Part shown: positions 1,000 through 24,000 of the stretch, piece after piece
Layout: every line of letters starts with the position of its first letter
Position numbering within the stretch: the first letter of the stretch is position 1
From: an uncultured Acetobacteraceae bacterium
Lineage (GTDB): Bacteria; Pseudomonadota; Alphaproteobacteria; Acetobacterales; Acetobacteraceae
Reading direction: 5' to 3'
DNA length: 24,000 nucleotides
Assembly (NCBI GenBank): GCA_903918195.1
Contig: CAIXDS010000071.1
Span: 1-24,000, forward strand
Notes under the pieces: model-generated
Seen by the model: the letters and a program-made list of their open reading frames with translations, nothing else
What the model was told of the DNA's origin: nothing
The model's database searches: none
Translations under genes and position numbers: made by a program

Positions 1000-1078
1000 C
1001 GAGCGGCCGGCGATGCTACGGCGGTTTGGCACGCCGGCGGCCGGCGCCCGAGCGGGCAGGGCAGCAGGGGGGGGAGAC

Positions 1079-3107: not shown

Positions 3108-3140
3108 GTGCAACTCCCCTGCCCGCGAATCTTGCGTCGG

Positions 3141-3178: not shown

Positions 3179-3268
3179 TCGGTCAGATGGGTGCATACTC
3201 CCCCGTGTCGCGAGTCGTGGTGCCCTTGGTGGGCTGCGGCGGTGCGGACATTGGAACGGAGAGCGCAG

Positions 3269-4908: not shown

Positions 4909-6434
4909 ACGTCGCCAGCTTCTTCGACCGGAGCGCGACTGCGGTTGCGCAGGTGCTGGGCGAATGCGATTCTGACCGGCTGAGGCTGAAGCTGTCGGGA
5001 TTGGCCGTGGCGCTCGCCTTTGACAGCAAGGCGGTGCGGGCTTCTGAGGGCGTGGCGACGCTGGAATTGGCGACCGACCTACTGGCGCGTTTCTACCCTG
5101 GACTTGGCCTTATCCCATTGGATGACGATCCAGCGACAGTCGCAATGGTAAGCAAATTGGGCGAAGCGGCGGGTGCAATACATCCGGGAATCGAATTGAA
5201 ACCCGAGATGTGTACGGTGTGTTGCTGCCTGATCGTCGGCAGCCGCGTTCCGGCTCTAGGCGTTCCCACCATATTCATCGGTTCGCACGGCTGGAACGCG
5301 ATACTGGACCCAAGCCAGCCAGTCGGAAGCCTGGACACGCTCAACCCGTTCGGCGCCGCGGCCGCGGCATGCGTCGGCGTCGCCAACGCTTTTCGCTTTG
5401 CCTTTGCGGATCTGCTGCCAGACACCCGACCGGATCGAGCCCTCGAATTCGATGTTCTCCATCATCGGCTTGGGCGCTGCTCGGTCGGCCCGGCATTGCC
5501 GGACCGAGTCGATATCGACGGCACCCACCTTGTCGGCCTGGGTGCCATTGGCCGCGCGGCGGCATGGTCGCTTTCCCATGCTCCGGCGCTGCGCGGCCGT
5601 CTCGACGGGGTTGATCACGAGGCGATCGAGGATTCTAATCTACAACGATATGTGGGGGCGACGCAGGCCGATGCTGCCGCTGGCGTGTTGAAGTGCCAAT
5701 CCGTGATGGCGATGTTTCGCGGCTCCGGCGTGCAGGTCGTGGAGCACCCGCTCACATGGGGCCAGTATCTGCGGTCCCGGGCTGATTGCCGTCTTGATCG
5801 GGTGGCCGTCGCGCTGGACACGCCGGACGACCGGATCTCCCTTCAAGCGGCGCTACCCCGCCGGATTCTGAACGCTTGGACGCAGCCGGGTGATCTGGGT
5901 GTCTCCCGTCATGGTTTCACCTCCGGCCCGTGCCTCGCCTGTCTTTACCTGCCAGAGCGTGAGGTGCCGAGCCTCTCCCACCTTGTGGCGGATGCTATTC
6001 GCTTGCCCGAGTTGGAAGTTCGCGGCCTGCTGCATGCCGGCTTTCGAGTAGACGCCGCGTTCTTGGGGCGGGTCGCGCTCGCAGCAGAGGTGCCGCTGGA
6101 AGCTTTGCTACCCTTTGATGGCCTGCCTCTACGCTCGTTCTACACGAAGGCGGTATGCGGCACGACCTGGTTCGGTACCGGCGCCGGCGGCGACCGGGGT
6201 GCAATGGCGGTGCCGATGGCATTCCAGTCCGCGCTCGCCGGTGTTCTGCTCGCCGTCGAAATCGTCGCCGACGCCGTGATGTTGCGCACAACGGCGATGG
6301 CACCGCTCACAAAAATCAATTTACTCAAGCCGCTCGGAAGCCGTTTGGTGGAACCGGCCGCAAAACATAAGTCTGGCCAGTGCATCTGCCAGGACGACAC
6401 ATATCGTGCGGCCTATCAGCGGAAGTATGCCTAA
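4905..6434 (+). CDS. E1-like ThiF/MoeB-family adenylating enzyme with an inactive N-terminal lobe and an active C-terminal lobe (BilD-like)
   Basis: ORF 4809-6434; ATG 4905 overlaps the JAB stop (ATGA 4905-4908). The Rossmann motif 'LVGLGAIGRAAAW' (GLGAIG 5535-5552), 'DHEAIEDSNLQRY' and 'ALDTPDDR' lie in the C-terminal half. Cys pairs 'CLACLY' and 'GQCICQ' look like a zinc site. A helical insertion 'LSHLVADAIRLPELEVRGLLH...FYTKAVCGTTWF' carries a candidate catalytic Cys. The N-terminal ~220 aa lack a nucleotide motif. 509 aa. Confidence 0.85.
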   Translation: MNVASFFDRSATAVAQVLGECDSDRLRLKLSGLAVALAFDSKAVRASEGVATLELATDLLARFYPGLGLIPLDDDPATVAMVSKLGEAAGAIHPGIELKPEMCTVCCCLIVGSRVPALGVPTIFIGSHGWNAILDPSQPVGSLDTLNPFGAAAAACVGVANAFRFAFADLLPDTRPDRALEFDVLHHRLGRCSVGPALPDRVDIDGTHLVGLGAIGRAAAWSLSHAPALRGRLDGVDHEAIEDSNLQRYVGATQADAAAGVLKCQSVMAMFRGSGVQVVEHPLTWGQYLRSRADCRLDRVAVALDTPDDRISLQAALPRRILNAWTQPGDLGVSRHGFTSGPCLACLYLPEREVPSLSHLVADAIRLPELEVRGLLHAGFRVDAAFLGRVALAAEVPLEALLPFDGLPLRSFYTKAVCGTTWFGTGAGGDRGAMAVPMAFQSALAGVLLAVEIVADAVMLRTTAMAPLTKINLLKPLGSRLVEPAAKHKSGQCICQDDTYRAAYQRKYA

Positions 6435-9008: not shown

Positions 9009-9440
9009 TCATTCCTCACCCGGCAACGGTACGTGCCGAACGCTCCGGTAATGGTCATCAGGCAGGATCGTTTCCCCGTGTGCCACGATGCCAAAGCAGT
9101 CTGTGATGAGGCGGACGAACCCCGGCTGGTGCAACTGCCTGTCGGCCCGGATGACGAAGCGCCGTGCCACGGAATCATAGAGAACACGGCCACGTGGCCA
9201 TTCCTCGTATTCGGACCAGACTGGAGCCGTTGGAATTCCATCTCCGCGGAGTGCACGCGCGCCACGGCGGGCCAGCCGCGACCAGTGCTCAAGATGGCCC
9301 GTGTCCACGGTCAGCATGTCGCCATAGGCCTCGGCCCGTTCCAGCGGGACGGCCAGTGCGATGACGGTCGATTTTCCGCCCTCCTCGACCACCCAGAACG
9401 GGCCGACCATCCCGCCTCCGTCTGGTTTCGCCCCGTTCAT
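9009..9440 (-). CDS. Hypothetical protein (143 aa) translationally coupled to the DUF2779 gene
   Basis: ORF 9009-9503 trimmed to ATG 9440, which overlaps the upstream stop (ATGA on the minus strand, 9440-9437). G/C-rich third positions. Conserved-looking segments are 'GPFWVVEE', 'SEYEEWPRGRVLYD' and 'RFVIRADRQL'. Family not recognised. Confidence 0.65.
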   Translation of the reverse strand: MNGAKPDGGGMVGPFWVVEEGGKSTVIALAVPLERAEAYGDMLTVDTGHLEHWSRLARRGARALRGDGIPTAPVWSEYEEWPRGRVLYDSVARRFVIRADRQLHQPGFVRLITDCFGIVAHGETILPDDHYRSVRHVPLPGEE

Positions 9441-10921
9441 TGCTGCGCCAGCTTTGCCAGAGCGCGGTGCACCTCGACCATGGCAAGCGTATCGCGCTGG
9501 CAATAGGCGCGCAGCGCGGCCTGCAACCGATCGGCTTCCTCGGGAACCGCGAGAACGCCGGAGGCTAACTGCAGGAACGCCGCCGCCGCCGCGAGTCCAT
9601 CGGCGATGCCGTCGAGATCGTCGTAACCAAAGCCGGGGCGGAGGGCGGGAGCAACGGATTTGATCGAGTTGCTGAAGCCGAACTCAGGAAGGTAGACGGT
9701 ACCGCGCACGATCGGCAGCAGGTCCAGCAGCCGGGCGATGATCGCGGCGATCCCCGAGCACAGATCGGAGAACCGCGCCGCCAGTTCCTTCAGCTGCGTC
9801 TGTTCATAGGCCGAATAGACGATGATCGGCCCATCGAAGGCCCCGAGTGCCTCGATCAGCGTTTCGGCGAATCGGCGCCGCGGATCTTCGCTGCCATCGG
9901 CGAGGAACTCCCGGTGATGCAGGGCACCGTCGTCGGCGATCGCGTGCAATGACCATTGAAAGGGAAGAGTCTGGTAGGGTCGCGTCCCTTCGTAGAGCGG
10001 GATGGGTGGCATCATCGCCTCGAAGTCCAGGTAGCAGGCGGGAGGGCCGTAGCCCGGCAGCAGGCGTGCCAGATCGGGAGCGATGTAGGGCCGCCCGCTT
10101 GCGGTCGCATCGCGGATGATGGCTTGCTTTCCCGTCAGCGGGAAATCCGCCGGGATTGCTGAAATGGCATCGATGCCGCGCGCCTGGAGCTCGCTCGCGC
10201 GGGCATGCGACAGACGGGGGAGATAGGCGATCCAGTCGGCCGGCTTGTGTGCCGTGCACCGGTCCCAGTACTCGCACTCATAGGGCGCGCGGCACTGGCT
10301 GCCCGGCTCGGCATCCGGAGGCTCGGCCATGCGCAGACATGCCCGCATGGCGGGCAGCGCCGCGGGCAGGTCGCCAAGCCTCTTCGCCACCTCGGCACCG
10401 ATGTCGCTTCGGGCGAAGAACTCCGGCCAACTGATGCCGCCGGCCCCGCGAACATAGGACGTGTTCACATGGAGATGCTCGACGGATGGGATGGGGATGC
10501 CAGCGCCCCTGAGAACGTGGAGCTGAAGAGCAATGTCGTCGACATGATGGTCCTTGACGCTGGCGCTGCTCTTCACTTCCCGTAGTCCCCAGGTCGCGTT
10601 GCCCCGCCGTTCAAGCACGTCCACCCGGATACGGATATCGTCGTGCTCGAACGCGGCCTCGAAGATCGCCGGCACGCCCGTATCGTCCATCAGCGCGGCC
10701 GTGCGGGCGCGGGCTTCGGCATGCTGCCACGGTTCCTGGTCGACGAGCACGCCACCAGGAAACAGCAGGTACGCCTTGCGGCCGATCTGCTGTCCGATGT
10801 CCAGCGGGGATCCCGGCAGTGGTTCCTCGTAATTCGGCGGCTCGTTGACCAGCAGCCAGAGCCGGCGCAGGCATTGCAGACCGGCGATGTAGCGCGACTT
10901 GGTGAGATGCTGACCGGGCAC
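9437..10921 (-). CDS. DUF2779-type protein: N-terminal Cas4/RecB-like PD-(D/E)xK nuclease with a Cys cluster plus a C-terminal RNase H-like exonuclease domain
   Basis: ORF 9437-11089. Family N-terminus 'LTKSRYIAGLQCLRRLW'. Nuclease motif 'IRIRVDVLERR...WGLREVKSS'. Cys cluster 'QC...CRAPYECEYWDRC'. C-terminal 'CYLDFEAMMPPIPLYEGTRPYQTLPFQWSLH'. Start moved to GTG 10921 because the 56 upstream codons have clearly lower GC3; ATG 11089 remains possible. Confidence 0.85.
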   Translation of the reverse strand: MPGQHLTKSRYIAGLQCLRRLWLLVNEPPNYEEPLPGSPLDIGQQIGRKAYLLFPGGVLVDQEPWQHAEARARTAALMDDTGVPAIFEAAFEHDDIRIRVDVLERRGNATWGLREVKSSASVKDHHVDDIALQLHVLRGAGIPIPSVEHLHVNTSYVRGAGGISWPEFFARSDIGAEVAKRLGDLPAALPAMRACLRMAEPPDAEPGSQCRAPYECEYWDRCTAHKPADWIAYLPRLSHARASELQARGIDAISAIPADFPLTGKQAIIRDATASGRPYIAPDLARLLPGYGPPACYLDFEAMMPPIPLYEGTRPYQTLPFQWSLHAIADDGALHHREFLADGSEDPRRRFAETLIEALGAFDGPIIVYSAYEQTQLKELAARFSDLCSGIAAIIARLLDLLPIVRGTVYLPEFGFSNSIKSVAPALRPGFGYDDLDGIADGLAAAAAFLQLASGVLAVPEEADRLQAALRAYCQRDTLAMVEVHRALAKLAQQ

Positions 10922-11193
10922 TGATTGCGTCCGAGGTGGATGCAGAATCCTCCACGCCCCGATTGTTGTCGGCAACCGGAAATCGTCGCGCCTGGATGTG
11001 ACCACGTCCGCTTCTGTCGTGGCGGTGGCGTATTCTTTCGGAACGCCGCAGTGACAGGAGGCCACCGAACCGGCTATGACACGCTCCATGCCATGAGCAC
11101 CTGACCCGAGACCTCTTTGACGCTCAGGAATCAGCCCGCACTCGGACTCTGTCCGGACGGTCTGGTCCGCGTGTGTTCATCGAGGAGGTCCCC

Positions 11194-11551: not shown

Positions 11552-11815
11552 CCCGTCAGCACGCCATCCGAAAGCTGTGATCGATGTCGCAATTGACAGC
11601 CGCCGCCGGCGCGGCCTATCCGTCCGGTTCCGTAAGCACCTGTCTGCCCACCCGAGCCACCCTGTCCGCCATCCCGCCGGCCCTCGGTCGCGCGGGCATT
11701 TTGCGTTCAGCGATGACCAACGCAGCGGCGAAGGCCGACCTGCGCGTTCCTGCACGACTAGGTTTGACGCACGACAGGCGCATCTCTCCCACGCGTGCGG
11801 TCAGGAAAAACTGAC

Positions 11816-13939
11816 ATGACCATTTCCGAGTATATGGAAATCGAGCACGCCGCGCCGGCGCGGTCGGTCAACAGCGGGCGGTGCCTGGCGCTCCGCTGCG
11901 CCCGCAATGTCTGCGCCGCGGCCTCCCGCCGCTCTCCAGAGGCCCGGGCGGTTGCCGACTGGCTCGCCGAACATGCCGAGGCACTCGGCCTGCCCGATGC
12001 GGCGCCGCCGGAGGAGAGCATGCCCGTCGGCACGCAGCGCCGCCGCGGCGTCTCGGCCGAGGTCTGGGACTGGGTCGGGCAGACGCTGGAGGATGCCTGG
12101 AACAGTGAGGCCGCCGCGGCGAACACGGCGGCCGAACGCTGGGCCAACGCCATCGCCGCCAGGCTCGCGCTTGATCCGGCGGAAGCGTCGGTCTTCTCCC
12201 TGGCGCTGCATTACCGGCTGGACCAGCGGGTCGAAAACCTGTTCGACGCGGTCAGCCAGTCCCGCGGCGGCCGGTCACAGCTCCACCGCGATGTGGCGCT
12301 GATCGGGCTGCTGCTCGGGGAAGCCGAGGCCGGGATCGAGGCGCGCCTGATGCCTGAAGCTCCGCTGCTGGCCAGCGGCCTGCTGCATCTCGACCGGGAC
12401 GGCGACCTGATGGTCCTGCACCAACTCGTCTGCCTCATCCGGCGGAACACCCCCCCGGGCGCCGATCTGTACGACCACCTGCTCGGCAAGGCGGCGGGCG
12501 ATCCGCTGCCTTGGGAGGCGTTCGCACATCTCGGCCGCGAGGCGGAGGTCGCGGCCGAGGTGCTGCGGGCGACGCTTGCCGCGCGGGAGAGCGGCGTCAA
12601 CATCCTGCTTTACGGGCCGCCGGGCACCGGGAAGACCTCATTCGCCGCCACCCTGGCCGCCCATGTCGGCGCCCGGCTGCGGCCGGTGACGGAAGCCAGC
12701 GAAAGCGGTTGGGAACCCCGGCGGCACGAGCGCCTGGCCGGGCTGCTGTTGGCCCAGCGCCTGGCGGCACCGGGGGAGACGCTGCTGTTGTTCGACGAGG
12801 CCGAGGACCTCTTCGTCGCCCGCACCTATCGGGACGGCGACTTGGTGGCGAGTTCGCGCGTCTTCATGCATCGCCTTCTCGAACGCATGACATTGCCGGT
12901 GATCTGGACCGCGAACGACATCGGCGCGCTCGGCCCGGCGGTGCTGCGGCGGATGACGATGTGCCTGGAGCTGAAGGTGCCGAACGTGGTGACGCGGACC
13001 CGGCTCTGGCGCCAGATGGCGACGGCGGAAGGTGTCGCGTTGCCGGAGGCCGACGCCGCCCGCCTCGCCCGGCTGGTTCCGGCCGCCCCCGCCGTCGCTT
13101 CCGCCGCGCTGCGGGCGACGCGCCTCGCCGGCGGCGGGGCGGAGACGGCCAGGCTGATCATCGAGGGCGTGGCGCGCGCGGTGCAGGGCGGTGGCCTTCC
13201 GCTGCCGGAGCCGGAGCACGATGCCGATTACGACCCCGCGCTGGTGAACGCGGATTGCGACCTCGCGTCCCTGACCGCCGGTCTGGTGCGGCAACGTGCG
13301 CCGCGCGCGGTTTCGTTCCTGCTGGCGGGACCGCCGGGCACGGGCAAGAGCGTCTGGGTGCGGCACCTCGCGGCGCGGATGGGGATGCAGGTGCTCCAGA
13401 AGCGTGCCTCCGACCTGCTCAATTCGTTCCTCGGCGGCACCGAGCGGAACATCGCCGACGCCTTCGCCGAGGCGCGGGACACCGGCGCCTTCCTGGTGTT
13501 CGACGAGGCCGACAGCCTGCTGCTCGACCGCGCCGACGCGGTGCGCAGCTGGGAGATCAGCCAGGTCAACGAGATGCTCACCTGGATGGAGCAGCATCCG
13601 TTGCCGTTCGCCTGCACGACCAACCTCCCGGCCCGCCTCGACCGCGCCAGCCTGCGCCGCTTCCTGGTCAAGGTCAGCTTCGACTGGCTGACGCAGGCCC
13701 AGGCGCGGCTGGCCTTCCGGCGGTTCTTCGGCATGGCGCCGCCCGCGGGACTCGACGGCCTGCTGACACTGACGCCCGCGGATTTCGCGCTGGTCCGGCG
13801 GCGCGCCGCGGTGACCGGCGCCACGGCGAACCAGGCGGCGCTGCTGCGTCTGCTGGCCGCCGAGTGCGAGGGCCGGGTCGGCGGGCGGCTGCAGGTCGGG
13901 TTCGCGGCCAGGGCGGCGGGTGATTGCGATGCCGCATAG
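11816..13939 (+). CDS. Tandem classical AAA+ ATPase (two AAA modules, Cdc48/VAT-like arrangement) with an unassigned ~250-aa N-terminal region
   Basis: ORF 11795-13939; ATG 11816 (AGGA about 9 nt upstream). AAA1: Walker A 'GPPGTGKT' 12614-12637, Walker B 'LLLFDEAEDL', 'WTANDIGALGPAVLRRM'. AAA2: Walker A 'GPPGTGKS' 13328-13351, pore-loop-like 'NSFLGGTE' (FLG 13427-13435), Walker B 'FLVFDEADSL', second region of homology 'TTNLPARLDRASLRRF'. 707 aa. Confidence 0.85.
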   Translation: MTISEYMEIEHAAPARSVNSGRCLALRCARNVCAAASRRSPEARAVADWLAEHAEALGLPDAAPPEESMPVGTQRRRGVSAEVWDWVGQTLEDAWNSEAAAANTAAERWANAIAARLALDPAEASVFSLALHYRLDQRVENLFDAVSQSRGGRSQLHRDVALIGLLLGEAEAGIEARLMPEAPLLASGLLHLDRDGDLMVLHQLVCLIRRNTPPGADLYDHLLGKAAGDPLPWEAFAHLGREAEVAAEVLRATLAARESGVNILLYGPPGTGKTSFAATLAAHVGARLRPVTEASESGWEPRRHERLAGLLLAQRLAAPGETLLLFDEAEDLFVARTYRDGDLVASSRVFMHRLLERMTLPVIWTANDIGALGPAVLRRMTMCLELKVPNVVTRTRLWRQMATAEGVALPEADAARLARLVPAAPAVASAALRATRLAGGGAETARLIIEGVARAVQGGGLPLPEPEHDADYDPALVNADCDLASLTAGLVRQRAPRAVSFLLAGPPGTGKSVWVRHLAARMGMQVLQKRASDLLNSFLGGTERNIADAFAEARDTGAFLVFDEADSLLLDRADAVRSWEISQVNEMLTWMEQHPLPFACTTNLPARLDRASLRRFLVKVSFDWLTQAQARLAFRRFFGMAPPAGLDGLLTLTPADFALVRRRAAVTGATANQAALLRLLAAECEGRVGGRLQVGFAARAAGDCDAA

Positions 13940-13958
13940 AAGAAGGCAGCATGCCGCC

Positions 13959-15005
13959 ATGAGGTATGGACCAGCAGAACGTCTGCTGCGCCTCGCCCGC
14001 TCTCTGGCGGCGACCCGCACCGGGCTGACGCTCGACGAAATGGCCGCCGAGCTTGAAGTCACGCGGCGGACGGCCGAGCGGCTGCGCGATGCCCTGATGG
14101 CCATGTTCCCGGAAATGGACAGCCAGGATGGCGACGACCGCACACGGCGCTGGCGGCTGCCGGGCAGCACCCTGATCGGGGTGCTGGAACCCCGCGCCGA
14201 GACCGTGGCCGCGGTCGAAACCGCCGCGCGCGAGTGCGAGCAACGCGGCGAAGCCGACCGCGCGGCGCTGCTGCGCGATGCCGCGACCACGCTGCGGGCG
14301 GTGATGCGGCCGGATGCCCTGCGCCGCACCGAGACGGGCATCGCCGCGCTGATGGAGGCCGAGGGCATCGCGATGCGACCGGGACCGCGGCCGGTGCTGG
14401 CTGCCGGGGTCCTGCCGACGTTGCGCCGGGCGATTCTGGGCATGCAGCCCGTCGTGGTCCGCTACGCGGGGCGCGATGCGGAGGAACCGGCGACGCGCAT
14501 CTTGTGTCCGTACGGCATTCTCTACGGCGGGCGCGGCTGGCTGGTCGCGCATGTCGAGAACCTACCGGAGATGCGGCTGTGGCGGTTGGATCGGATCGTT
14601 TCGGCCGATCGGCTCGAACGTTGCTTTCTGCGACGGGAAGATTTTTCGCTAGCGGCCTATGCGGCGCGGTCCTTCGGGGTGTTTCAGGAGGAGCCGATCG
14701 ACGTGGTGCTGCGGTTTGAACCGGAGGCGGCGGAGGACGCGGCATCCTGGACGTTTCATCCGTCACAATTTATCGTGCGGGAAGCGGATGGTTCTCTGAC
14801 CGTGCGGTTCCGGGCGGGCGGGGTGCAGGAGATGTGCTGGCATCTGTTTGCGTGGGGGACGGCGGTGACGGTGGTGGGGCCAGAATCGCTACAGGATACG
14901 ATCGCAGTTCTTGCGCGGGCTCTCGCCCAACACCACGCGAGGATCAGGGCTTGCGTTGACATATCAAACAAATCTGATGGCGGAAGGCACGATCATGCCA
15001 GATGA
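13959..15005 (+). CDS. HTH-WYL-WCX transcriptional regulator (YafY/PafBC-like)
   Basis: ORF 13920-15005; ATG 13959 lies 19 nt after the AAA+ stop. HTH: 'RLLRLARSLAATRTGLTLDEMAAELEVTRRTAERLRDAL'. WYL: 'VVVRYAGRDAEEPATRILCPYGILYGGRGWLVAHVENLPEMRLWRLDRI'. WCX-like: 'SLTVRFRAGGVQEMCWHLFAWGTAVTVVGPESL'. 348 aa. Confidence 0.85.
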   Translation: MRYGPAERLLRLARSLAATRTGLTLDEMAAELEVTRRTAERLRDALMAMFPEMDSQDGDDRTRRWRLPGSTLIGVLEPRAETVAAVETAARECEQRGEADRAALLRDAATTLRAVMRPDALRRTETGIAALMEAEGIAMRPGPRPVLAAGVLPTLRRAILGMQPVVVRYAGRDAEEPATRILCPYGILYGGRGWLVAHVENLPEMRLWRLDRIVSADRLERCFLRREDFSLAAYAARSFGVFQEEPIDVVLRFEPEAAEDAASWTFHPSQFIVREADGSLTVRFRAGGVQEMCWHLFAWGTAVTVVGPESLQDTIAVLARALAQHHARIRACVDISNKSDGGRHDHAR

Positions 15006-16314
15006 GGCCCAGATACGAGACTTCTTTGCGAGGGTACGCGGCATTGCCGAGGCGACGCGACTGGCGGGATCAGCGATCGCCCGCGCAGTTGCTCCGCGTT
15101 TCTGCCCTGTTGCGCTGTTTTATCCGAACGAAACTGACCTGAGTCGCGTGCTCGCATTCCTGATTGATCCGACCGCCAATCACGGGCAGGGAACGATGTT
15201 TCTGCGTCTCTTTCTTGATGTCGTTGGGTTGCCTGAATGCGACGATCGGGAGGACGGGATTGACGTTTCGACAGAATATGTTTTGAGTCCCAGTTTGCGT
15301 CGCGCCGATATCGCTGTCAGTTATACCCGTCTGGATAGGCAACGAATTCATTTGCTGATCGAAAATAAGCCGTGGGCTGGCGATGGTGTAGATCAGCTTT
15401 CTGATTATTCGAAATACCTGAAAACTAAATATCAGTCTACGCCATGGGCAATTGTTTATATTCCATCGACGGAGCGCGACCCTGGCGCGCACTCCGTCGA
15501 TGAGAACTGCTTCCAAACCCTTATCGCGAATCGTAGTTTATTTATCTTACCGTATGTGTCGAAGCAAAGAGAGAGATCGATTCAGGAATGGCTCAAACGC
15601 TGTGAAGCAACCTGCGAGGCTGAGGAGCCTCGGCGTTTTATTGGTGCCTTCAGGCGCTATCTTGCAGAGAATGTTCCAGATACTGGAGTTGTTCAGATGA
15701 GCGATGCCGAACGGTCGGTTGCGCAGATTTTGCTGAAGTTCTTGCAGGAACGCGACGAAGATATAAATATCGCACTGGAGGTACCAAAGGCGCTCGCCAG
15801 CCTTCGGAATGATCTGGCCAAGAAGATTGGGGATCGGATCACGGAGGGGATAAGAAGCAGGTTGCAGGGTGGTGACTGGCAGATCGAATCGAACTTTACG
15901 ACCGAGCAGTGGGCCGGCTTGGGCATTTACCGTTCTCGTTGGCCAAAGGGAATGACAAAGAAAAATCAAGAAAGTCAGTGTTTCGTTGGTATCGAGTTTC
16001 ATGGCAGCTTTAAACAGGCCCACTACGGTGTGGCGGGGCACAGAGATATGCTTGGGGAGCTCAGGGGACCTATCAGGGAGGCTGCGAGCGAGTATTTGCG
16101 GCTCGCCGGGGACCGGGATTGGTGGCCAGCCATATTAAATTTCGAACAGCCATTGGCCGATTGGCTATCGGATGAGTTCCTGCACTTCGCCCGACGCGTA
16201 CTGCGCGACGAGGAAGAGTCGTCGGCTGTTGTCAACAATTTGGTTACATGTATTGTTGAGGTTGCCAAGAAAGTCGACGAAGTGGTCACCAGGATGCAGC
16301 CCGATAAGGCGTGA
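14995..16314 (+). CDS. PD-(D/E)xK nuclease superfamily protein (PDDEXK_4-like N-terminal domain, unassigned C-terminal half)
   Basis: ORF 14911-16314; ATG 14995 has GGAAGG 7 nt upstream and overlaps the WYL gene end by 11 nt. 'ETDLSRVLAFLIDPTANHGQGTMFLRLFL' is followed by the nuclease core 'RRADIAVSY...RIHLLIENKPWAGDGVDQLSDY' (Asp codon 15307-15309, E-N-K 15361-15369). Sampled blocks are about 47-52% GC. 439 aa. Confidence 0.75.
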   Translation: MPDEAQIRDFFARVRGIAEATRLAGSAIARAVAPRFCPVALFYPNETDLSRVLAFLIDPTANHGQGTMFLRLFLDVVGLPECDDREDGIDVSTEYVLSPSLRRADIAVSYTRLDRQRIHLLIENKPWAGDGVDQLSDYSKYLKTKYQSTPWAIVYIPSTERDPGAHSVDENCFQTLIANRSLFILPYVSKQRERSIQEWLKRCEATCEAEEPRRFIGAFRRYLAENVPDTGVVQMSDAERSVAQILLKFLQERDEDINIALEVPKALASLRNDLAKKIGDRITEGIRSRLQGGDWQIESNFTTEQWAGLGIYRSRWPKGMTKKNQESQCFVGIEFHGSFKQAHYGVAGHRDMLGELRGPIREAASEYLRLAGDRDWWPAILNFEQPLADWLSDEFLHFARRVLRDEEESSAVVNNLVTCIVEVAKKVDEVVTRMQPDKA

Positions 16315-16336: not shown

Positions 16337-19300
16337 CTATTCCGGATCAACCCGCACCATCCGCCCCGACGTCATGAACACCACCAGCCCCCTGGCGGCA
16401 CCAGTGGCGCGGAGATAGGTGCGAACCTGCGCGGCGTACCCGGCGATCGCCGCCGCGTCAGGCGCCACATCGCTCTTCCAGTCGATCACCATTTCCGGCG
16501 CACCGCCGGCCGACAAGGCCACGGCGTCGGCAATGCCGAGAACCACTTCCTCACCGGCGTCGCCGGCCGCAGCGGCGCAGACGTTGAATTCCGGCACCAG
16601 CGAGGCGCGAACGGCGTTGACATCCGGCAAGGCCAGGGTGCGGAGCACGGACGCTGCGAGTTCGGCCGGATCGGCGTCGTCCACCGGCTCGGGACAGGTG
16701 GCCGCGAGTTCGGCGGCACGCACGCGCAGTGCGGCCTCGGTGTCGCCGGTCTCGCCCGTCAGCACCTCCTCCATCAGCTTGTGCAGCACCAGGCCACGCC
16801 CACGCCCGCCCTGGGGCAACGGCGGCGGTTCCGGCTGGTCCGCGGCGTCCAGCACCACCGGCTCCGGGTCCGCCTCGCCGCTTTCCGCCCGGCTCGGCGT
16901 CACCCGCACCAGGCGGGTGGCGCGGGCGGTGATCAGCCCGGCCTCGGTCGTGAAGGTGGCCGCGTCCTGGCCGTTCGCCTCCTCCGTGTGCACCGGCAGA
17001 ACCGAGGGCGGCAGCCCCGCCTGGTCGAACGCCGGCAGCGTCCGGACCTCAAGCGGCACTGCGGCGCTCCAGGCGGAGTCCGAGAGCTTCGCTGCAAACC
17101 GCGGCAACAGCAGCAGGTCGCGCGCCCGCGTCGCCGCCACGTACCACAGGCGCTGGCGTTCCAGGCCCATCTGCGCGGTCTCGTCCGCCAGCGCCGCCGC
17201 GCAGCCGGGCGGGTCCACGCCCAGGATGCGGGCATGCAGCAGCCCGGTGGCGCGATCGAGCACCGGGGGGCGCGGACCGAACACGCCGCCTGATGTGTTC
17301 ACCGGGATCACCACCGCCCATTCCAGCCCTTTGGCTGCATGCATGGTGATCAGCGAGACCGCCTCCTGCTCGGCGTCCGGCCGCGCTTCCTGTGTTCGGG
17401 TCTCTTCCTGCCATTGCGTGCGTATCGCCCGTGCGAAGGCGCCGAGGCCGCGAGTCTCCCAGCCGCGGGCCATCTCCAGGAAGGCATCGACGTTTGCCAG
17501 CGCCCGTTCGGCACCGCGGCCGAAGCGCTGGCGCAGTACCGGGCGGACCCGCATTTCCTCGACCGCCTGCGCCAGCAGGACATAGGGCGTGGTGGCGCGC
17601 GCGCGGCGGGCCAGGCCCTGCAAAATCTCCAGTGTTTCCCTCAGCACCGGCTCGGCGACGTTGACGATGGGCAACCATAGGTTCAGCCGCGCCGGCCTTC
17701 CATCGGCGGCGGGCGGCACCGCTTCCAGCGCGTCGAGCAGCGCTTCCTCCGTCATGCCCACCAGCGGCCCTCGCAACAGCGCGCCGAGCGCCAGCGTGTC
17801 GCGCGCATCCGCGAGTGCCCCGGCCAGCGCGATCAGGTCCTGCACTTCCTGGCGGCGGAAGAACCCTTTTCCCGCCTGCGTCGCCACCGGCAGGAAGCGG
17901 TCCTCAAGAGCGCGCTCGTAGCGCCAGAGATCGGTACCGGTCGGGGCCAGCAGGGCGATGTCGCCGGCCCGGCAGGGGCGCGTCGTTCCGTCCGATCCGC
18001 GCACGGCGAAGGCGCCGATCAGGCGGCGGCAGGTTTCCGCCACTTGGTCCGCCTCGGCGTCGCGCAGCGAAGCGGCGTTTGTCTCGGCAGCTTCAATGTC
18101 CAACGCACAGACGCTGGCGCGCTCGTCGAGCGCCGCCGCGGTGCTGAACAGCGGCGCAAAGCCCGGCTGGCCCGGCGCGCCGAGGGGAGCGGCGAAGCGT
18201 TCGTTCACCCATTCCAGAATCGGCTCCACCGAGCGGAAGTTGCACCCGATCGCCAGCACATTGTCAGGCGCGCCGGCGCGCAGCGCGTCGCGCGCGCGAA
18301 CGTAGGTCGCGACATCGGCGCCACGGAAACGATAGATCGCCTGCTTGGGGTCGCCGACCAGGAACAGCGCCCCGTCGCGCAGCCGCCAGTCGGTCCAGGG
18401 CGCGTCCGTGTGACCGGCCGGCGCGTCGCCGCAGAGCCGCCACAGGATTTCGGCCTGCACCGGGTCGGTGTCCTGGAACTCGTCGACCAGCACGTGGCGG
18501 AACCGGCCGGCCAGCGCGGCGCGCACGGCAGGGTTTCCGGCCAGCAGGTCGCGGGCGCCGTGCAGCAGATCGTCGAAATCGAGCAGCCCGGCGGCGCGCT
18601 TGGTTTCTTGGAAGCGGTCAACGATTGCTTGCAGGTCCGGCGCGAGCCGGGCCAGCAGCGTGCCTGCCGCGGCAGCCCGCAACTCGGCGTGGCCGGTTTT
18701 GCAGGCGGCGTAGAGAGCTGTGGCCTCGTCGTTCAGACGATCGGCCTCAGCCTTGCTGCCTCGGCCGCCCAGCGTCGTCTGCCAGGCGCCTTTCTTGCGA
18801 TAGGCTGCGAACGCACCCGCTGCCGTGCTGCAGGCCTGAGGGACCGGCAGGTACAGCAGCGCGAGAAGCCGCGCGATGTCGCCGGCAGCACCGTCCGGCA
18901 GCCCGGTCAGCAAATCCTCGAGCCCCTCGGCAACTTCCTTGATGAGAGGCTCGCAGATCGGCACGCCATCAACGAAGACCTGCAACGCTGCCACCGCTTG
19001 CCGCAGCGCCGCACAGGCCCCCTCCAGGTCCGGCGCAGGCGGCAGAGTCGCGCCCCGATGCTGGCGCAGCATCTGCGCGAAGCCGGCGATCAGCTCCTCG
19101 GGTTTTCCTTCGTCGAGCAGGAACAACGCCGCCAGCGCATCGTCGCCGGCGGTATCGCTTGCCAGCCGTTCGCGCAGCACCTCCTGCACGGTCTCGTCGA
19201 ACAGCAACGCCGCCTCGCCGGCATCGGCCACGGTGGCACCGGGGTCGGTCCGCGCCTCCACCGGCCAGGGAGTCAGCAACATGCGGCAGAAGCCGTGGAT

Positions 19301-19663
19301 GGTTGTGCAGGCGAGCGCATCGATCCGCGACGCGGCCTGCATCAGCGCCGCGTGTTGCGCCGCGGTCAGCCCCTTTGGCAGCGCCGCTGCCAGATCACGC
19401 GGCACCTCGTTGCGGCAGAGCGCCATCACGAAGCGCTCCACTCGCTCACGCAACTCGCTCGCCGAGGCTTCGGTGAAGCTGATCGCGGCGATGCTCTCGG
19501 GCGCTCGCCCGGCCGCGAGCAGCAAGGCGATGCGCCCGGCCAGCACCGAGGTCTTTCCCGATCCGGCTCCGGCCTCGACAAGCAGCGTGGCATCAAGATC
19601 GGTGAGCGCCCGCAGCCGGCTGGCGGCGTCCGATCGTGCGAGAGTGGCAACGCTTGACATCAC
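16337..19663 (-). CDS. AddA-like UvrD/Rep-family helicase with a C-terminal RecB-type nuclease
   Basis: 1108-aa ORF. Walker A 'EAGAGSGKTSVL', motif II 'VLVDEFQDTDPVQ', motif III 'LFLVGDPKQAIYRFRGA', 'CNFRS', 'ITMHAAKGLEW' and 'LWYVAATRARDLLLL'. C-terminal nuclease 'GIADAVAL...EMVIDWKSD...YAAQVRTYL'. Start is GTG 19663 or ATG 19660, both overlapping the upstream stop (19660-19662). Confidence 0.9.
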   Translation of the reverse strand: MMSSVATLARSDAASRLRALTDLDATLLVEAGAGSGKTSVLAGRIALLLAAGRAPESIAAISFTEASASELRERVERFVMALCRNEVPRDLAAALPKGLTAAQHAALMQAASRIDALACTTIHGFCRMLLTPWPVEARTDPGATVADAGEAALLFDETVQEVLRERLASDTAGDDALAALFLLDEGKPEELIAGFAQMLRQHRGATLPPAPDLEGACAALRQAVAALQVFVDGVPICEPLIKEVAEGLEDLLTGLPDGAAGDIARLLALLYLPVPQACSTAAGAFAAYRKKGAWQTTLGGRGSKAEADRLNDEATALYAACKTGHAELRAAAAGTLLARLAPDLQAIVDRFQETKRAAGLLDFDDLLHGARDLLAGNPAVRAALAGRFRHVLVDEFQDTDPVQAEILWRLCGDAPAGHTDAPWTDWRLRDGALFLVGDPKQAIYRFRGADVATYVRARDALRAGAPDNVLAIGCNFRSVEPILEWVNERFAAPLGAPGQPGFAPLFSTAAALDERASVCALDIEAAETNAASLRDAEADQVAETCRRLIGAFAVRGSDGTTRPCRAGDIALLAPTGTDLWRYERALEDRFLPVATQAGKGFFRRQEVQDLIALAGALADARDTLALGALLRGPLVGMTEEALLDALEAVPPAADGRPARLNLWLPIVNVAEPVLRETLEILQGLARRARATTPYVLLAQAVEEMRVRPVLRQRFGRGAERALANVDAFLEMARGWETRGLGAFARAIRTQWQEETRTQEARPDAEQEAVSLITMHAAKGLEWAVVIPVNTSGGVFGPRPPVLDRATGLLHARILGVDPPGCAAALADETAQMGLERQRLWYVAATRARDLLLLPRFAAKLSDSAWSAAVPLEVRTLPAFDQAGLPPSVLPVHTEEANGQDAATFTTEAGLITARATRLVRVTPSRAESGEADPEPVVLDAADQPEPPPLPQGGRGRGLVLHKLMEEVLTGETGDTEAALRVRAAELAATCPEPVDDADPAELAASVLRTLALPDVNAVRASLVPEFNVCAAAAGDAGEEVVLGIADAVALSAGGAPEMVIDWKSDVAPDAAAIAGYAAQVRTYLRATGAARGLVVFMTSGRMVRVDPE

Positions 19664-22305
19664 GCGGCCTCCCAGATCTCGGCCGCCGGACCGAGCAGGA
19701 CGGCGGCAGCTTCGCGCTTGCGCTCGAAAACACTGCCTTGTTGGGACGGCAAAGCGAAGGCCAAGTCGTCGTAATCGCCTCCGGTGTCAGGCCCGGGCAC
19801 AGCCAGCCCGGCCTGCAGGGCCGCCAGGCTGTGGTTTAGCGCGCTCACCAGCGTGGCGAGCGCTCCGTCGGGATCGGGGAGGGGATAGTACGGTGTCTCA
19901 GATCGCGGATACAGAAGCGCGGCCTCGACCTCCGTTTCCGTCCCAAGCAGCGCGCGCACCGCGGCAATATACAGGCATCGCTGCAGCTCCCCGCCGCCGG
20001 CCAGCACGCGGCCGGCGATGTCGCGCGGCGGGTTGCCGGTCTTGAAATCCACCACCCGCGCTTTGCTGCGGTTGCCGGCGAGATCGAGCCGATCGATCTG
20101 TCCCGTGAGGGCAAGCGACGTCCCGGGGATTTGCACCGGCTGCGCCGCATCCCAGGGCATCGCGCCCTCCGGCGGCTCATCGACGTTGAACGGCACTTCG
20201 GGCCAGGTGGTCTGGCCGTCCAGGGCGCGAAGCGGATGAGAGAGCGCATCGGTTGCGAGCGCGGCGGCCTGGTCGAGTGTCCGCCGCCAAAGCAACGGTG
20301 GCGGCAGAGGCATGCTCGCCTGCCAGCGCAGGCCGATCCGGCCGGCTTCGCCGGCGACCGCAGCGGCGATCTGCTTCGGCTCGTCGCCGGCCGCGTCTTC
20401 CGCTGTCGCCAGCACGCGGAGAGAAGCGGCGATGATCTCATGCGTGAGCGTGCCGAAGGTGAGGGGATCGAGGCGGAACGGCTCGGCCTCTTCGTCGGGC
20501 GCCCGCAGGCCGAGCGCATACTGCCAGACGAAGCCGAGCGGATTGCGCAACAGCTTCTTCAGCGAGGTCGCGGAGTGGTGCCGCGCCAGCACGCGTTGCA
20601 CGGCCGGGTGCCCTGCACGGACCAGACCGTCATGCGGCGTGATGCCTGGGGAGAGCCAGTCGCGCCATACAGCGTCGGCTGCCTGCGCCCGCGGCTTCCT
20701 GGCGAACTCGGCCGGGCGCGCCATCAGCCGGTCAGCCTCGCTCATGGCATGCGAAGGCACGGCGGCGCGGCGCAGGAAACGCGCGCCGGCATCGGGCAGT
20801 AGCGGCGAGCGGCCGAGCAGGCGGCCGGTGGCATCACGGCGGCTGCACGACAGCACCAGTTCGCGCGCCGTTCCGCCGCAGATGCTGGCGAAGTCGCGCC
20901 GGTCGGCCTCGGCGACCGGCAGCACGTCGAGCACGGCGGCGGGGACCAGGCTGGTAGGCAGCAGCGGGTCCTCCCGGCTCTGCCGCGGCCAGGACTGTGC
21001 GTTCAGGCCCAGCAAGCGCACAAACGGACGCGGTGCGGCGGCCAGTTCGGCGGCCGGCCCCCAGATGATGCTGCAGGCCGGATCGGCGGGATCGGTCACA
21101 CGCAGGGAAGAAAGCGACCGTTCGATCGCCGCGGCACTTTCGCGGTCGAGGGCGCGGCGCCACAGCGTGCGGGCGAGGCCGCACAGGATTGTTTCGCCGG
21201 CTTCGGCAGCCGCCTCCGGCCTACGATGCAGCAGCTCGACAACCGGCATCAGCACGGCGGCCACCGCCGCGCCATCCTCGCCGGCGTCGTCGCAGACAAT
21301 CTGCCAGCGGGCCGGGGTTCCGAGCGGCGCACCCTCTGGGAGCACGCGCCGCCAGGTTTCCGGCAGGGCGTGCAGCGCTCCGCCGGCCGGCGCGGCCAGC
21401 GCGACAAGGCGGCGCAGTCGTGCCTGCGACAGGCCCCGCAGCAGGATGTCGGCCAGCGCGGCGGCGGTCTGGCCCTCGCGCGTGAACAAGGCCGGCCGGC
21501 CATGGGCGAAATGCAGCTGCAGGTTGGCGTCGGCCACCGCCGCCTCGACGATGTCGTCGAAGGCGGCCGGCGAGGCGGCAACGATGGCTATCTCCTCGGC
21601 GCGCGCCGCACCGCTGGCAAGCAGGGCGCGTGCCCAGCGCAGGGCCTCGATCACCTCGTGCCGCGCGGTCGCGCAGCTCACAACTGTTGGCGTTGCTGCG
21701 GTGCTGGTGGTCCGGCGGATGGCGACTTCCGTTCCGTCCAGCCAGGCCGGCACCTCGCGCGCCCCGGCGTGCCACGAGACTGGCACATGCGATCCGAGCT
21801 CCAGCAGAAGACCCTGCCAGACCGGCTCCAGCGCCGTCATGCCGTGCACCTCAACCGGGCCGGTGACAACAGGCGCATGGGCGAGCCGCCCCCGTGCCGC
21901 CGCCGCGAGTTCGGCCGGGCGCAGCATGCCGGGCGGGAGGCGCTTCAGCACGTCGGCCTCAAGCGTCGCCAGCGTGGCGAAGCGCGGATGCTCCGCCGCG
22001 CGCGCCTGGAGGTCGATGCAGGCGCGCCAGGCCTTGCCGAGGGTGGACGCGAGCGCGAGTTGCAGACCCGGCAGGTCGCCGATTGGCGCAAGATCCCCAA
22101 GCGGTGCCGCGGCGGGATCCTGCAGCACCTCGCCGAGCGCCGCGGCGAGCGCCTCCGCATCGATCGCGCGCAGAAAGCCGCCAGCCAGCCGAGCCGCCAG
22201 CCCTGGCATGCTCATCACCTGCACGCCATGCTGGCCAGCGCGGGCGGCCTGGAGCCGCGCCTGATCGGCGGCGAGGCGGCCATAGGTTACGATGGTACAG
22301 CGCAT
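19660..22305 (-). CDS. AddB-like PD-(D/E)xK nuclease subunit (no P-loop, no Fe-S cysteine cluster)
   Basis: ORF 19660-22344; start placed at ATG 22305 (GGAGA about 9 nt upstream), alternatives 22338/22344. C-terminal RecB nuclease motif 'GQIDRLDLAGNRSKARVVDFKTG...ELQRCLYIAAV'. Long helicase-like but Walker-less N-terminal body. Immediately upstream of, and overlapping, the AddA-like gene. Confidence 0.8.
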   Translation of the reverse strand: MRCTIVTYGRLAADQARLQAARAGQHGVQVMSMPGLAARLAGGFLRAIDAEALAAALGEVLQDPAAAPLGDLAPIGDLPGLQLALASTLGKAWRACIDLQARAAEHPRFATLATLEADVLKRLPPGMLRPAELAAAARGRLAHAPVVTGPVEVHGMTALEPVWQGLLLELGSHVPVSWHAGAREVPAWLDGTEVAIRRTTSTAATPTVVSCATARHEVIEALRWARALLASGAARAEEIAIVAASPAAFDDIVEAAVADANLQLHFAHGRPALFTREGQTAAALADILLRGLSQARLRRLVALAAPAGGALHALPETWRRVLPEGAPLGTPARWQIVCDDAGEDGAAVAAVLMPVVELLHRRPEAAAEAGETILCGLARTLWRRALDRESAAAIERSLSSLRVTDPADPACSIIWGPAAELAAAPRPFVRLLGLNAQSWPRQSREDPLLPTSLVPAAVLDVLPVAEADRRDFASICGGTARELVLSCSRRDATGRLLGRSPLLPDAGARFLRRAAVPSHAMSEADRLMARPAEFARKPRAQAADAVWRDWLSPGITPHDGLVRAGHPAVQRVLARHHSATSLKKLLRNPLGFVWQYALGLRAPDEEAEPFRLDPLTFGTLTHEIIAASLRVLATAEDAAGDEPKQIAAAVAGEAGRIGLRWQASMPLPPPLLWRRTLDQAAALATDALSHPLRALDGQTTWPEVPFNVDEPPEGAMPWDAAQPVQIPGTSLALTGQIDRLDLAGNRSKARVVDFKTGNPPRDIAGRVLAGGGELQRCLYIAAVRALLGTETEVEAALLYPRSETPYYPLPDPDGALATLVSALNHSLAALQAGLAVPGPDTGGDYDDLAFALPSQQGSVFERKREAAAVLLGPAAEIWEAA

Positions 22306-22396
22306 TATTTCGGGTCTCCGAGGTGCGACGGCGCTCATTCCCACGATTTCTTAGCATGATCCGGCATCCGAACCGCTGCAGCCGGCATCGATATTC

Positions 22397-23584
22397 TCAC
22401 GCCGCGCTGAAGCGCTTTCGCTTAACCCAGACGAAGCCGTCACCCTTTGACAGGATGGCAACATCGATCGGTCCTCCCACGGTTTCTTTCTCACCGGCGC
22501 ACGCGTGCGCCCGGAAGGCGGTCAGGCTGACGAGAGCTTCCGCCATCTCGGCCAGGTCATGCCGCGGCAGCGCCGCAACGGCTTGCATGAAGGGGCCGGA
22601 GTGTTGCTTCGAAATTTCCTCCTGCAGGCTCGTCTCGAACCTTTCGACAGCGTCCGGGGCGTCGCCGCCAGTTGCCTTCTTATGCGGCTTGGATACCTTG
22701 AGGCTGTCCGCCATGAGCGCCGGCAGACTGTCGGCCAGGTCGGGGTGGATTCCCCGGATGATCATGTCGATCGTCTCGCGCTGCGCGAAAGGAATGATCA
22801 TCGCCGTGTCGTCATGCGTGATCCGGGCATGGTCAACCAGGTGCAGCTTGAGGCGACCCTTCACGACCGGGCCGACGCGGCAGAAGAGCAGGCCAGGAAA
22901 AGGCTCCGCCTCGCCCATGCCGGCGATGACCAGCCCAGAGAACGGACCGGGAAAGTTGGCGCGCGAGAGACACAGCCGAAGCGTCGTGCGCAGGCCGTCA
23001 CTGATGTCCCCCGGCATTACGTCCGGGCCGAAGACGGCGTGTTCCGCCTCGTCCAGAGCGGCGCCGTAATCGGCGATCACCGCGTCCGGGAAGCCGCTGT
23101 CGACGCGTTCCAGCAGCGGATATTTTTCCCAGATCGCATGATCCTCGGCGATAAGACGCCGCAGAACGTCGTGCGGGTCGCCGTTGTTGCGGCCGCGATG
23201 CTCGCCCAGCTTTTCCTTCCAGGGCTGGGCGTAGAGCCCATCCCACAGATCGCGTGCGAGGCTGGCGAAGCGTGCTAGTTGCAGCGCCTCCGGGAACATC
23301 GCCGTCGATCTTTCGATGATGGCTGCGAAATCCGCGAGGTATTCCGGCAGCGTGTCGTAGTGCCGGGCGCCGAGGTGCCGGTGGTAGCCGGCGACAATCG
23401 TTTCCCACGGCACGTCCATCAGATCGGCCGAGCCGAACGTCATGATGCCGACGGGCGCTGAGGGCGCCAGTTGCAGAAGCTTTTCGGCGTTGTGGTATAT
23501 TTTCTCACCCTCGCCGAGGGTGACCGCGCTATCCGCCGCCAGGGCGATCCCGCGCGTGTTCATCACTGCAACCTCACAGGTCAT
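22397..23584 (-). CDS. Proteasome-beta/HslV-like Ntn (T1 family) threonine peptidase homologue with a large internal insertion
   Basis: ORF 22397-23599; second ATG 23584 has AAGGA 6 nt upstream and gives N-terminus Met-Thr. 'MTCEVAVMNTRGIALAADSAVTLGEGEKIYHNAEKLLQL' parallels E. coli HslV '[38 protein letters not shown]' (from memory). This places Thr1, Asp17 and Lys34 (expected 33). Later beta-fold segments are 'SGLVIAGMGEAEPFPGLLF' and 'ETVGGPIDVAILSKGDGFVWV'. 395 aa, against about 180-240 aa for HslV/20S beta. Confidence 0.7.
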   Translation of the reverse strand: MTCEVAVMNTRGIALAADSAVTLGEGEKIYHNAEKLLQLAPSAPVGIMTFGSADLMDVPWETIVAGYHRHLGARHYDTLPEYLADFAAIIERSTAMFPEALQLARFASLARDLWDGLYAQPWKEKLGEHRGRNNGDPHDVLRRLIAEDHAIWEKYPLLERVDSGFPDAVIADYGAALDEAEHAVFGPDVMPGDISDGLRTTLRLCLSRANFPGPFSGLVIAGMGEAEPFPGLLFCRVGPVVKGRLKLHLVDHARITHDDTAMIIPFAQRETIDMIIRGIHPDLADSLPALMADSLKVSKPHKKATGGDAPDAVERFETSLQEEISKQHSGPFMQAVAALPRHDLAEMAEALVSLTAFRAHACAGEKETVGGPIDVAILSKGDGFVWVKRKRFSAA

Positions 23585-24000
23585 CGCAGGTCCTTTCATG
23601 GCGGCCGCGCGGACACGGGATCAGGAAGAATGATCACGAAAAAGAACATATTACCCCGACACGTCAAATCCGGACGCGCTAAAAGAAGACGTTCTTAATA
23701 CGCGACCACCAGTTAGAGGAGGCGGATATCGTCGTGATCTGCGCGAACTCATCAAGGGCAGTCTCATTTCGGGTACGCTTGAACGGTCACAAAGCTCGGT
23801 CGTGCATGGAGCGAAAGAGGGGAGCTTCGCAGCGTTATGGGCTGGCGGGCATCAATCTCTCGCCCTCCAGCCTCCATGAAGAAAAATCTCTATACTTGCT
23901 AAACCAAAGACGAATTGTCCAAAAGATTGATAACACAGCAATGCTAGATTATTTTGTTTGAGGTGGCAGGATAGGTATGCTTGGCACCCGCCTCGTACAG

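Follow-up and report, generated by a model that had tools for sequence, protein, structure and literature searches.

The window analysed here is a stretch of 24,000 nucleotides (positions 1 to 24,000 of contig CAIXDS010000071.1, assembly GCA_903918195.1) from an uncultured Acetobacteraceae bacterium. Its right-hand part carries three consecutive minus-strand genes that encode a homologue of proteasome-type N-terminal nucleophile (Ntn) hydrolases, an AddB-like protein and an AddA-like protein (the latter two together, AddBA). An earlier note on this DNA had read the trio as a candidate defence or anti-anti-defence module in which a helicase-nuclease that senses DNA ends is coupled to a protease. 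The layout given in that note is confirmed; the open reading frames (ORFs) of the trio span 22397-23599, 19660-22344 and 16337-19663. The peptidase starts at the methionine encoded at 23584, and its N-terminus, MTCEVAVMN, was found to be kept in 30 and then in 147 homologues. Homologues place the start of the AddB-like protein at 22305, which yields an 881-aa product that is 100% identical to the database protein P0121. The AddA-like protein begins either with the GTG at 19663 or with the ATG at 19660, and both starts overlap the AddB-like stop codon (19660-19662), in line with the overlap noted earlier. The public NCBI/ENA annotation lists the same 395-, 881- and 1107-aa products on a 53.7-kb contig. 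The features of the window are collected in Table 1.

Table 1. Features of the 24,000-nt window, with the trio and its flanking regions listed first
Feature	Position	Strand	Evidence or remark
Proteasome-beta/Anbu-like Ntn hydrolase, 395 aa	22397..23584	-	start kept in homologues; AlphaFold2 (AF2) model, Foldseek, hhalign, phrog_5990
Spacer, 91 nt, from peptidase stop codon to AddB-like start	22306..22396	-	no terminator-like site
AddB-like subunit, 881 aa, with C-terminal RecB-type PD-(D/E)XK nuclease	19660..22305	-	Pfam, motifs, P0121
AddA-like subunit, 1107-1108 aa, superfamily 1A (SF1A) UvrD-type motor with C-terminal RecB nuclease	16337..19663	-	Pfam, motifs, PDB match
AT-richer region upstream of the peptidase gene, GC 0.51	23585..24000	-	presumed promoter carrier
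Helix-turn-helix (HTH)-WYL-WCX regulator of the PafBC/CapW/BrxR type	13920..15005	+	WYL 2.5e-10, WCX 9.9e-15
Double AAA+ ATPase, 714 aa, Cdc48-like	11795..13939	+	Pfam; phrog_10401 at 3.8e-67
PDDEXK_4 nuclease, low GC (0.53), like PADLOC candidate PDC-S26	14911..16314	+	converges on AddA-like gene
Tyrosine integrase, GC 0.72	959-2050		near the left end of the window
Small methyltransferase gene	108-677		before the integrase
WYL regulator	2160-3179	-	divergent from the ubiquitin-like conjugation system
Multi_ubiq+DUF2604+Metal_CEHH	3191-4357		ubiquitin-like system
Prok-JAB	4231-4908		ubiquitin-like system
Prok-E2_C+ThiF	4809-6434		ubiquitin-like system
DUF2779 (RecB/Cas4-like) protein	9437-11089		

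The gap between the peptidase gene and the AddB-like gene, estimated earlier at about 90 bp, is 91 nt long. Because no terminator-like hairpin was found in this spacer, read-through transcription from the peptidase gene into the AddB-like gene is possible, and the two genes are probably co-transcribed in the window lineage. A search for a promoter-like consensus in the upstream region (23585-24000) returned a sole match, which lies on the opposite strand, and none for the minus-strand peptidase gene. The GC content forms a mosaic, with values of 0.71-0.72 for the AddA-like and AddB-like genes, 0.64 for the peptidase gene and 0.53 for the PDDEXK_4 nuclease gene. The flanks are those described in the earlier note, a low-GC nuclease gene on one side and an AT-richer upstream region on the other.

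What kind of enzyme do the AddB-like and AddA-like proteins form? A motif scan and Pfam attribute a full set of superfamily 1 helicase motifs to the AddA-like protein, namely Walker A (AGAGSGKT at residue 30), TIHGFC, DEFQD, GDPKQAIYRFR, HAAKGLE and YVAATRA, together with a RecB nuclease motif (VIDWKS...QVRTY). Pfam detects UvrD-helicase (2e-50) and UvrD_C in this protein, and its best match in the PDB is Bacillus subtilis AddA (3u44_A, 1e-30). The AddB-like protein contains a PDDEXK_1 domain (Pfam, 1.3e-20) with the nuclease motif VVDFKT...QRCLY. It has no Walker A motif, and C777 is the sole cysteine of its nuclease domain, so a four-cysteine Fe-S cluster is absent. A profile built from 38 AddB-like sequences matches a single PDB entry, B. 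subtilis AddB (3u44_B), in a co-linear manner and weakly (E = 0.095). The descriptions of both proteins in the earlier note, including the missing P-loop and the length of 881 aa, agree with these results. The pair shares several features with AddAB of the B. subtilis type, RecBCD and AdnAB: the genes adjoin in the order B then A with overlapping stop and start codons, the A subunit combines a full SF1A motor with a RecB nuclease, the B subunit ends in a RecB nuclease and lacks an active motor, and AddA is the best PDB match of the AddA-like protein, as AddB is the sole one of the AddB-like profile. However, it differs from AddAB in that it lies far below the family thresholds, given that the AddA-like protein scores 266.4 bits against TIGR02784 (addA_alphas; equivalog cutoff, 860.75) and that no NCBIfam AddB model matches the AddB-like protein, whose likeness to AddB is marginal. 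A second difference is that the 881-aa AddB-like protein has neither the Walker A motif nor the Fe-S cysteines of Firmicute-type AddB, and a third is that pairs of the window type are carried on plasmids and in defence islands with WYL regulators.

These comparisons bear on the simplest view of the locus, an ordinary housekeeping addAB operon of the host behind an unrelated upstream gene. Like canonical addBA, the locus has AddB before AddA and couples their translation, and the best solved relative of the AddA-like protein is AddA. The scores against the family models point the other way, as do the plasmid-borne relatives and the setting of the genes in an integrase-bearing defence island. 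The genera that harbour plasmid-borne AddBA relatives have a chromosomal addAB, and neither trxA nor a nucleotidyltransferase gene is found in the context, as the earlier note had pointed out. In view of the neighbours and the hidden Markov model scores, we regard a housekeeping operon as highly improbable, and the accessory character that the earlier note had assigned to the pair is upheld by the low AddA score, the lack of an AddB model match and the plasmid distribution.

AddB-like genes are present on 61 alphaproteobacterial plasmids of Rhizobium, Bradyrhizobium, Mesorhizobium, Agrobacterium, Sulfitobacter and other genera, and 40 of these plasmids are conjugative. We compared gene neighbourhoods in a set of loci seeded with AddB that consists of 80 metagenome loci (43-89% AddB identity) and 2 plasmid loci. 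The AddA-like gene directly follows the AddB-like gene, in the same order, in every locus of this set that is long enough and on both plasmids. Thus, the two genes are well supported as a conserved two-gene accessory cassette of plasmids and defence islands. A WYL gene adjoins AddBA as a divergent regulator in 37 of the AddB-seeded loci, and WYL is the gene class most consistently tied to AddBA-type cassettes. Other recurrent neighbours are HmaA (1592 bits to the PADLOC model), ZacA/ZacB of Azaca and SngA/B/C of Shango, and a complete SngA/B/C set stands beside the AddBA cassette on a Sulfitobacter plasmid. As a side observation, a plasmid island composed of HmaA, a divergent WYL gene, AddB, AddA, ZacA/ZacB and a helicase recurs in approximately 23-25 of loci L093-L164; examples of this HmaA-WYL-AddBA-Azaca island lie in L159 (5361-8861), L149 (16135-17352) and L164 (17211-19064).

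An alternative view of the cassette is that it serves the mobile element itself instead of acting against phages, through double-strand-break repair, recombination, the establishment of incoming plasmid or integrative and conjugative element DNA or recovery from restriction or CRISPR cuts, and that the peptidase is unrelated cargo. AddAB-type enzymes are canonical recombination-repair enzymes, and the proportion of conjugative plasmids among the carriers would fit such a service. The outcome of a PADLOC v2 search also fits, given that the AddB-like protein is left unmatched, the AddA-like protein meets only generic UvrD-domain models (GajB, DRT helicase) and GajA is not detected. However, the cassette resides among established defence systems (HmaA, ZacA/B and SngA-C) and next to WYL genes, not in transfer or replication modules. 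Given these neighbours and the scores described above, we assign a service to the mobile element a low probability, although a higher one than a housekeeping role. A literature search returned no specific description of accessory AddAB-like cassettes, or of proteasome homologues in defence beyond Fuchs et al. (2021), and the accessory, WYL-associated AddBA-like cassette appears to be new as a recurrent element of defence islands.

The third gene of the trio encodes a protein that escapes most searches by sequence. No model of Pfam (including Proteasome), NCBIfam or PADLOC matches the peptidase, and neither phmmer nor a family profile retrieves anything relevant from the PDB. A full-length match is found in PHROG (phrog_5990, 8e-71). 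A first AF2 model built from 30 sequences had a predicted local distance difference test (pLDDT) score of 74, was poor at the conserved termini and gave weak proteasome matches only. It was superseded by a model built from 147 diverse homologues with a pLDDT of 92.7 and a predicted template modelling score (pTM) of 0.90. In a Foldseek comparison of the second model with the PDB, the top 50 structures are all proteasome beta or alpha subunits or Anbu (E down to 8e-5, probability of approximately 1.0, TM up to 0.54 on the target), and the best matches among the viral structures of BFVD are proteasome/HslV-like proteins of phages. M1, T2 and K35 are invariant in the 147 homologues and D18 is at least 90% conserved. 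T2, D18 and K35 correspond to positions 1, 17 and 34 of the mature protein and match the proteasome triad Thr1/Asp17/Lys33. The N-terminal Met-Thr suggests that methionine aminopeptidase can remove the methionine, as in HslV. Local alignments by hhalign, for which the reference sequences of HslV and the Thermoplasma acidophilum beta subunit were checked against the PDB, place the 24 N-terminal residues in register with Escherichia coli HslV (E = 0.067 for the N-terminus) and the C-terminal segment GGPIDVAILSKGDGF opposite GGMIDVAVITRKDGY of the T. acidophilum beta subunit (E = 2.8e-5). These data support the Ntn-peptidase assignment of the earlier note and a genuine homologue of proteasome-type Ntn hydrolases with a putative peptidase activity.

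The beta core of the peptidase model is interrupted twice by helical insertions, at approximately 99-207 after the first helix pair and at approximately 309-361, where the insertion separates the final two helices of the core. Proteasome homologs with multiple insertions, PMI-3 (reference member OGZ26396.1) and PMI-4 (HDY66466.1), were described by Fuchs, Alva and Lupas (2021); in these, one insertion follows H1/H2 and another lies between H3 and H4. The same authors find PMI-4 in abundance in bacteria, Euryarchaeota and phages and note that such insertions may prevent ring formation. The insertion pattern of the AF2 model conforms to this description, and by this pattern the peptidase is likely to belong to the PMI-3/PMI-4 subfamily. 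Like PMI-type homologues, Anbu and HslV, the peptidase has a proteasome-beta fold without a propeptide, and Thr1 would be exposed after removal of the methionine. It also shares with PMI-type homologues the conserved Asp17 and Lys33 equivalents, the two helical insertions, a spread over bacteria, archaea and phages and the lack of a conserved context across the family. The enzyme classes of the trio are already known, and the proteasome-homologue family is very probably the one described in 2021.

Does the peptidase have a constant partner? A profile search of 1.8 billion representative sequences sizes the family at 5,785 clusters at 50% identity, and no bridge to named families is found among the best 150 matches of that search. 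A scan that covered a single genome of each species confirmed at least 474 relatives, and members are present on at least 232 IMG/VR viral contigs as well as in prophages. No neighbour family is conserved in 80 genome loci seeded with the peptidase, where the 137 immediate neighbours of peptidase homologues distribute over 200 Pfam families that are each seen at most twice; nor is any neighbour conserved in 80 viral loci. The peptidase family as a whole is a stand-alone gene.

The peptidase is absent from all 82 AddB-seeded loci (80 metagenome and 2 plasmid loci), and the listed AddB plasmids have no member in common with the 10 plasmids that encode a peptidase homologue. Conversely, AddBA is found in one of the 80 peptidase-seeded genome loci (L005) and in none of the 80 viral loci. 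In the closest AddBA relatives of the window (L085-L088; 89% AddB and 84% AddA identity), homology to the window spans the AddB-like gene and the spacer and ends inside the peptidase gene, of which it covers just the final ~140 nt. The spacer and this terminal segment are approximately 75% conserved, and the remainder of the peptidase gene is gone. The remnant is frameshifted and retains the last ~45 codons (for example, 7274-7500 in L088), whereas the 882-aa AddB and 1114-aa AddA proteins are intact. The peptidase-AddB junction is therefore ancestral to the sub-branch of the window, and the peptidase gene was lost while AddBA was kept, a loss that can be dated. Since either module is found intact where the other is missing, the peptidase behaves as a facultative companion and not as a subunit. 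These observations do not support the protease-nuclease coupling of the earlier note in the form of a fixed three-gene module.

We therefore favour, with a confidence only slightly above even, a reading in which two autonomous modules are neighbours in a defence island that is under WYL control and belongs to an integrase-bearing alphaproteobacterial element. The first module, the translationally coupled AddB-like/AddA-like cassette, would be an accessory helicase-nuclease of the AddAB type. By analogy with AddAB and RecBCD, it would load on free double-stranded DNA ends, its single SF1A motor in the AddA-like subunit would unwind the duplex, and its two RecB-type nuclease sites, one per subunit, would cut both strands, so that linear foreign DNA would be destroyed. 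The single-stranded DNA (ssDNA) that it would generate belongs to the known ligand class of WYL regulators and could induce the island. The second module would be a proteasome-type Thr1 peptidase with 'multiple insertions' that stands alone and, in this lineage, accompanies the cassette facultatively, 91 nt upstream of AddB.

A narrower sample weighs against the independence of the two modules. Alphaproteobacterial peptidases that are at least 48% identical to that of the window and have enough flanking sequence form a subclade of 12 loci, a small sample picked for long contigs. An AddBA-type pair lies within 10 kb of the peptidase gene in 8 of the 12 loci (the window, L081, L082, L171, L165/166, L253/254, L167/168 and L169, the last being the same place as L005), in five arrangements and with three AddBA lineages. 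AddBA is directly adjacent in the window, separated by a WYL gene on the same strand in L082 and L167/168, divergent in L165, L169 and L253, convergent in L171 and dispersed in L081. The three lineages are barely alignable, with AddB identities of 19-26% between them, and the one-strand order peptidase-WYL-AddB-AddA occurs with two unrelated AddB lineages (L082; L167/L168). The identities of the peptidase and AddB are incongruent: the window and L165 share 62% in the peptidase and 24% in AddB. The window and L169 share 48% and 49%, respectively. A pairing that is kept despite partner swapping is a classic signature of functional linkage, and in these gene comparisons it is suggestive of one. 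The co-location may also reflect a shared island hotspot. The co-occurrence of the Thr1-type gene with AddAB-like genes, which the earlier note had proposed as a check, fails for most members of both families and holds for the peptidase subclade. The coupling is therefore partly supported: the peptidase-AddBA association is real within the subclade, in which a functional link may exist and would be facultative.

This association underlies a rival to the two-module reading, namely that the peptidase, a WYL-WCX regulator and an AddBA-type helicase-nuclease work as one system of several genes, often with a double AAA+ ATPase and a PDDEXK_4 nuclease. End processing by AddBA would release ssDNA for sensing by the WYL regulator, and the Thr1 peptidase, to which the AAA+ ATPase may feed substrates, would degrade a regulator, an inhibitor that phages direct at AddAB/RecBCD, or targets of the host. 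In addition to the pairing with cassettes of three lineages, the distribution of the double AAA+ ATPase gene favours such a system, because this gene is seen only in peptidase-seeded loci (six with the window: the window, L006, L081, L082 as a remnant, L165 and L169) and was not found in any of the 80 AddB-seeded ones. In L006, the peptidase gene comes immediately after it, and in L082 immediately after its remnant. Near-identical strains also keep the peptidase/AddB/AddA trio. Against these points stand the AddBA cassettes that remained intact after peptidase loss, the absence of the peptidase from the AddB-seeded loci, the subclade peptidases without AddBA (L172, L002 and L255), the lack of a conserved gene order and strand, and the partnerless state of the wider peptidase family. 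The C-terminus of the double AAA+ ATPase has no HbYX motif, and docking of the ATPase on the peptidase through that motif was accordingly rejected. We consider a multi-gene system a tentative alternative that falls well short of an even chance.

The same caution applies to its strongest form, in which the PMI-type proteasome homologue of one alphaproteobacterial lineage now works together with AddAB-like helicase-nucleases under WYL control, in many cases alongside a Cdc48-like double AAA+ ATPase, in a defence system that couples DNA-end sensing or processing to targeted proteolysis; we hold this to be possible and rather doubtful. Such a system would parallel, as an analogy, the PafBC/Pup-proteasome/AdnAB set of actinobacteria or CapH/CapP. 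The actinobacterial proteasome/PafBC/AdnAB DNA-damage circuit consists of dispersed chromosomal housekeeping genes that are linked by regulation. The window offers counterparts for its proteasome-type peptidase, AAA+ ATPase, WYL-WCX regulator and AddAB-class helicase-nuclease, whereas its genes are island cargo, and Pup, Dop, PafA and an alpha subunit are missing; the comparison is no more than an analogy.

Returning to the two-module reading, the postulated role of the WYL regulator can be compared with regulators of defence islands and DNA-damage responses, namely BrxR, CapW, DriD and PafBC, published members of which are reported to sense ssDNA. As in those systems, an HTH-WYL-WCX gene is found beside the AddBA-type cassettes, either divergent or in the same operon. 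The arrangement in the window is different, given that approximately 1.3 kb (13920-15005 versus 16337) separate its WYL-WCX gene from the AddA-like gene, that these two genes are on opposite strands and that the WYL-WCX gene follows the AAA-AAA gene.

The widespread and apparently undescribed AddAB-like cassette amid Hma, Azaca and Shango represents a plausible new defence or counter-counter-defence module derived from a classic repair enzyme. Fuchs et al. (2021) explicitly found neither a genomic context nor an AAA+ partner for the new proteasome homologues, and the remark in the earlier note that the coupling was undescribed agrees with that report. The alphaproteobacterial subclade of the window differs from the family described by these authors in having a recurrent neighbourhood of WYL, an AddBA-type pair and AAA-AAA, which is the first for this family of proteasome homologues. 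The neighbourhood that joins a PMI-type proteasome homologue, AddBA-type pairs and an AAA+ ATPase appears to be new. If the working partnership is true, it would, for the first time, supply a 'new' proteasome homologue with a functional context and with an AAA+ partner. A functional link would join DNA-end surveillance to proteolysis in bacterial immunity; if the link is not functional, the locus would still illustrate cleanly how cassettes are shuffled in defence islands, with the loss of a peptidase gene as an event that can be dated.

Two further observations concern the subclade. The fourth locus without AddBA, L170, encodes at 9935-11047 a peptidase homologue (74-75% identity) that is truncated by ~25 residues at the N-terminus, so that Thr1 and Asp17 are missing; its neighbours are transposase, DUF932 and resolvase genes, AddBA is lacking in its vicinity, and the gene may be a pseudogene. 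Several subclade peptidase genes are flanked by other enzymes, namely an ADP-ribosylglycohydrolase fused into the AddB operon, a PP2C phosphatase and a PAD_porph deiminase (L253, 6414-7331 and 10189-10962; L169, 8713-9732), and ADP_ribosyl_GH is seen twice among the neighbours of the wider peptidase family.

The rest of the window has the character of a defence island, and the accessory, defence-type context proposed in the earlier note is borne out by the integrase, the two WYL genes, the ubiquitin-like system, the PDC-S26-like nuclease and the DUF2779 protein. No tRNA gene is present in the window, and the boundary of the island was therefore not placed; near the trio, no Rfam match, convincing repeat or operator was found. 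The plus-strand run from the double AAA+ ATPase through the WYL-WCX regulator to the PDDEXK_4 nuclease (11795-16314) has overlapping gene ends. In L165 and L253, too, a member of the PDDEXK_4 family of the window adjoins AddBA and the peptidase gene, and a one-strand series AAA-WYL-...-PDDEXK_4-AddB-AddA in L165 corresponds to the gene set of the window. A tie between the peptidase and the ubiquitin-like system of the window was considered and rejected, given that no E1, E2 or JAB family is among the most frequent families of the 137 peptidase-homologue neighbours. A multiubiquitin and ThiF pair is located near AddBA on a Rhizobium sullae plasmid too. DUF2779 genes lie near the peptidase gene in L007, L015, L017 and L081, and in an AddBA clade of 63% identity, a short ORF resembling DUF2779 residues 60-158 stands directly upstream of AddB (L091, 5569-5844; L092, 206-505; L154, 145-444).

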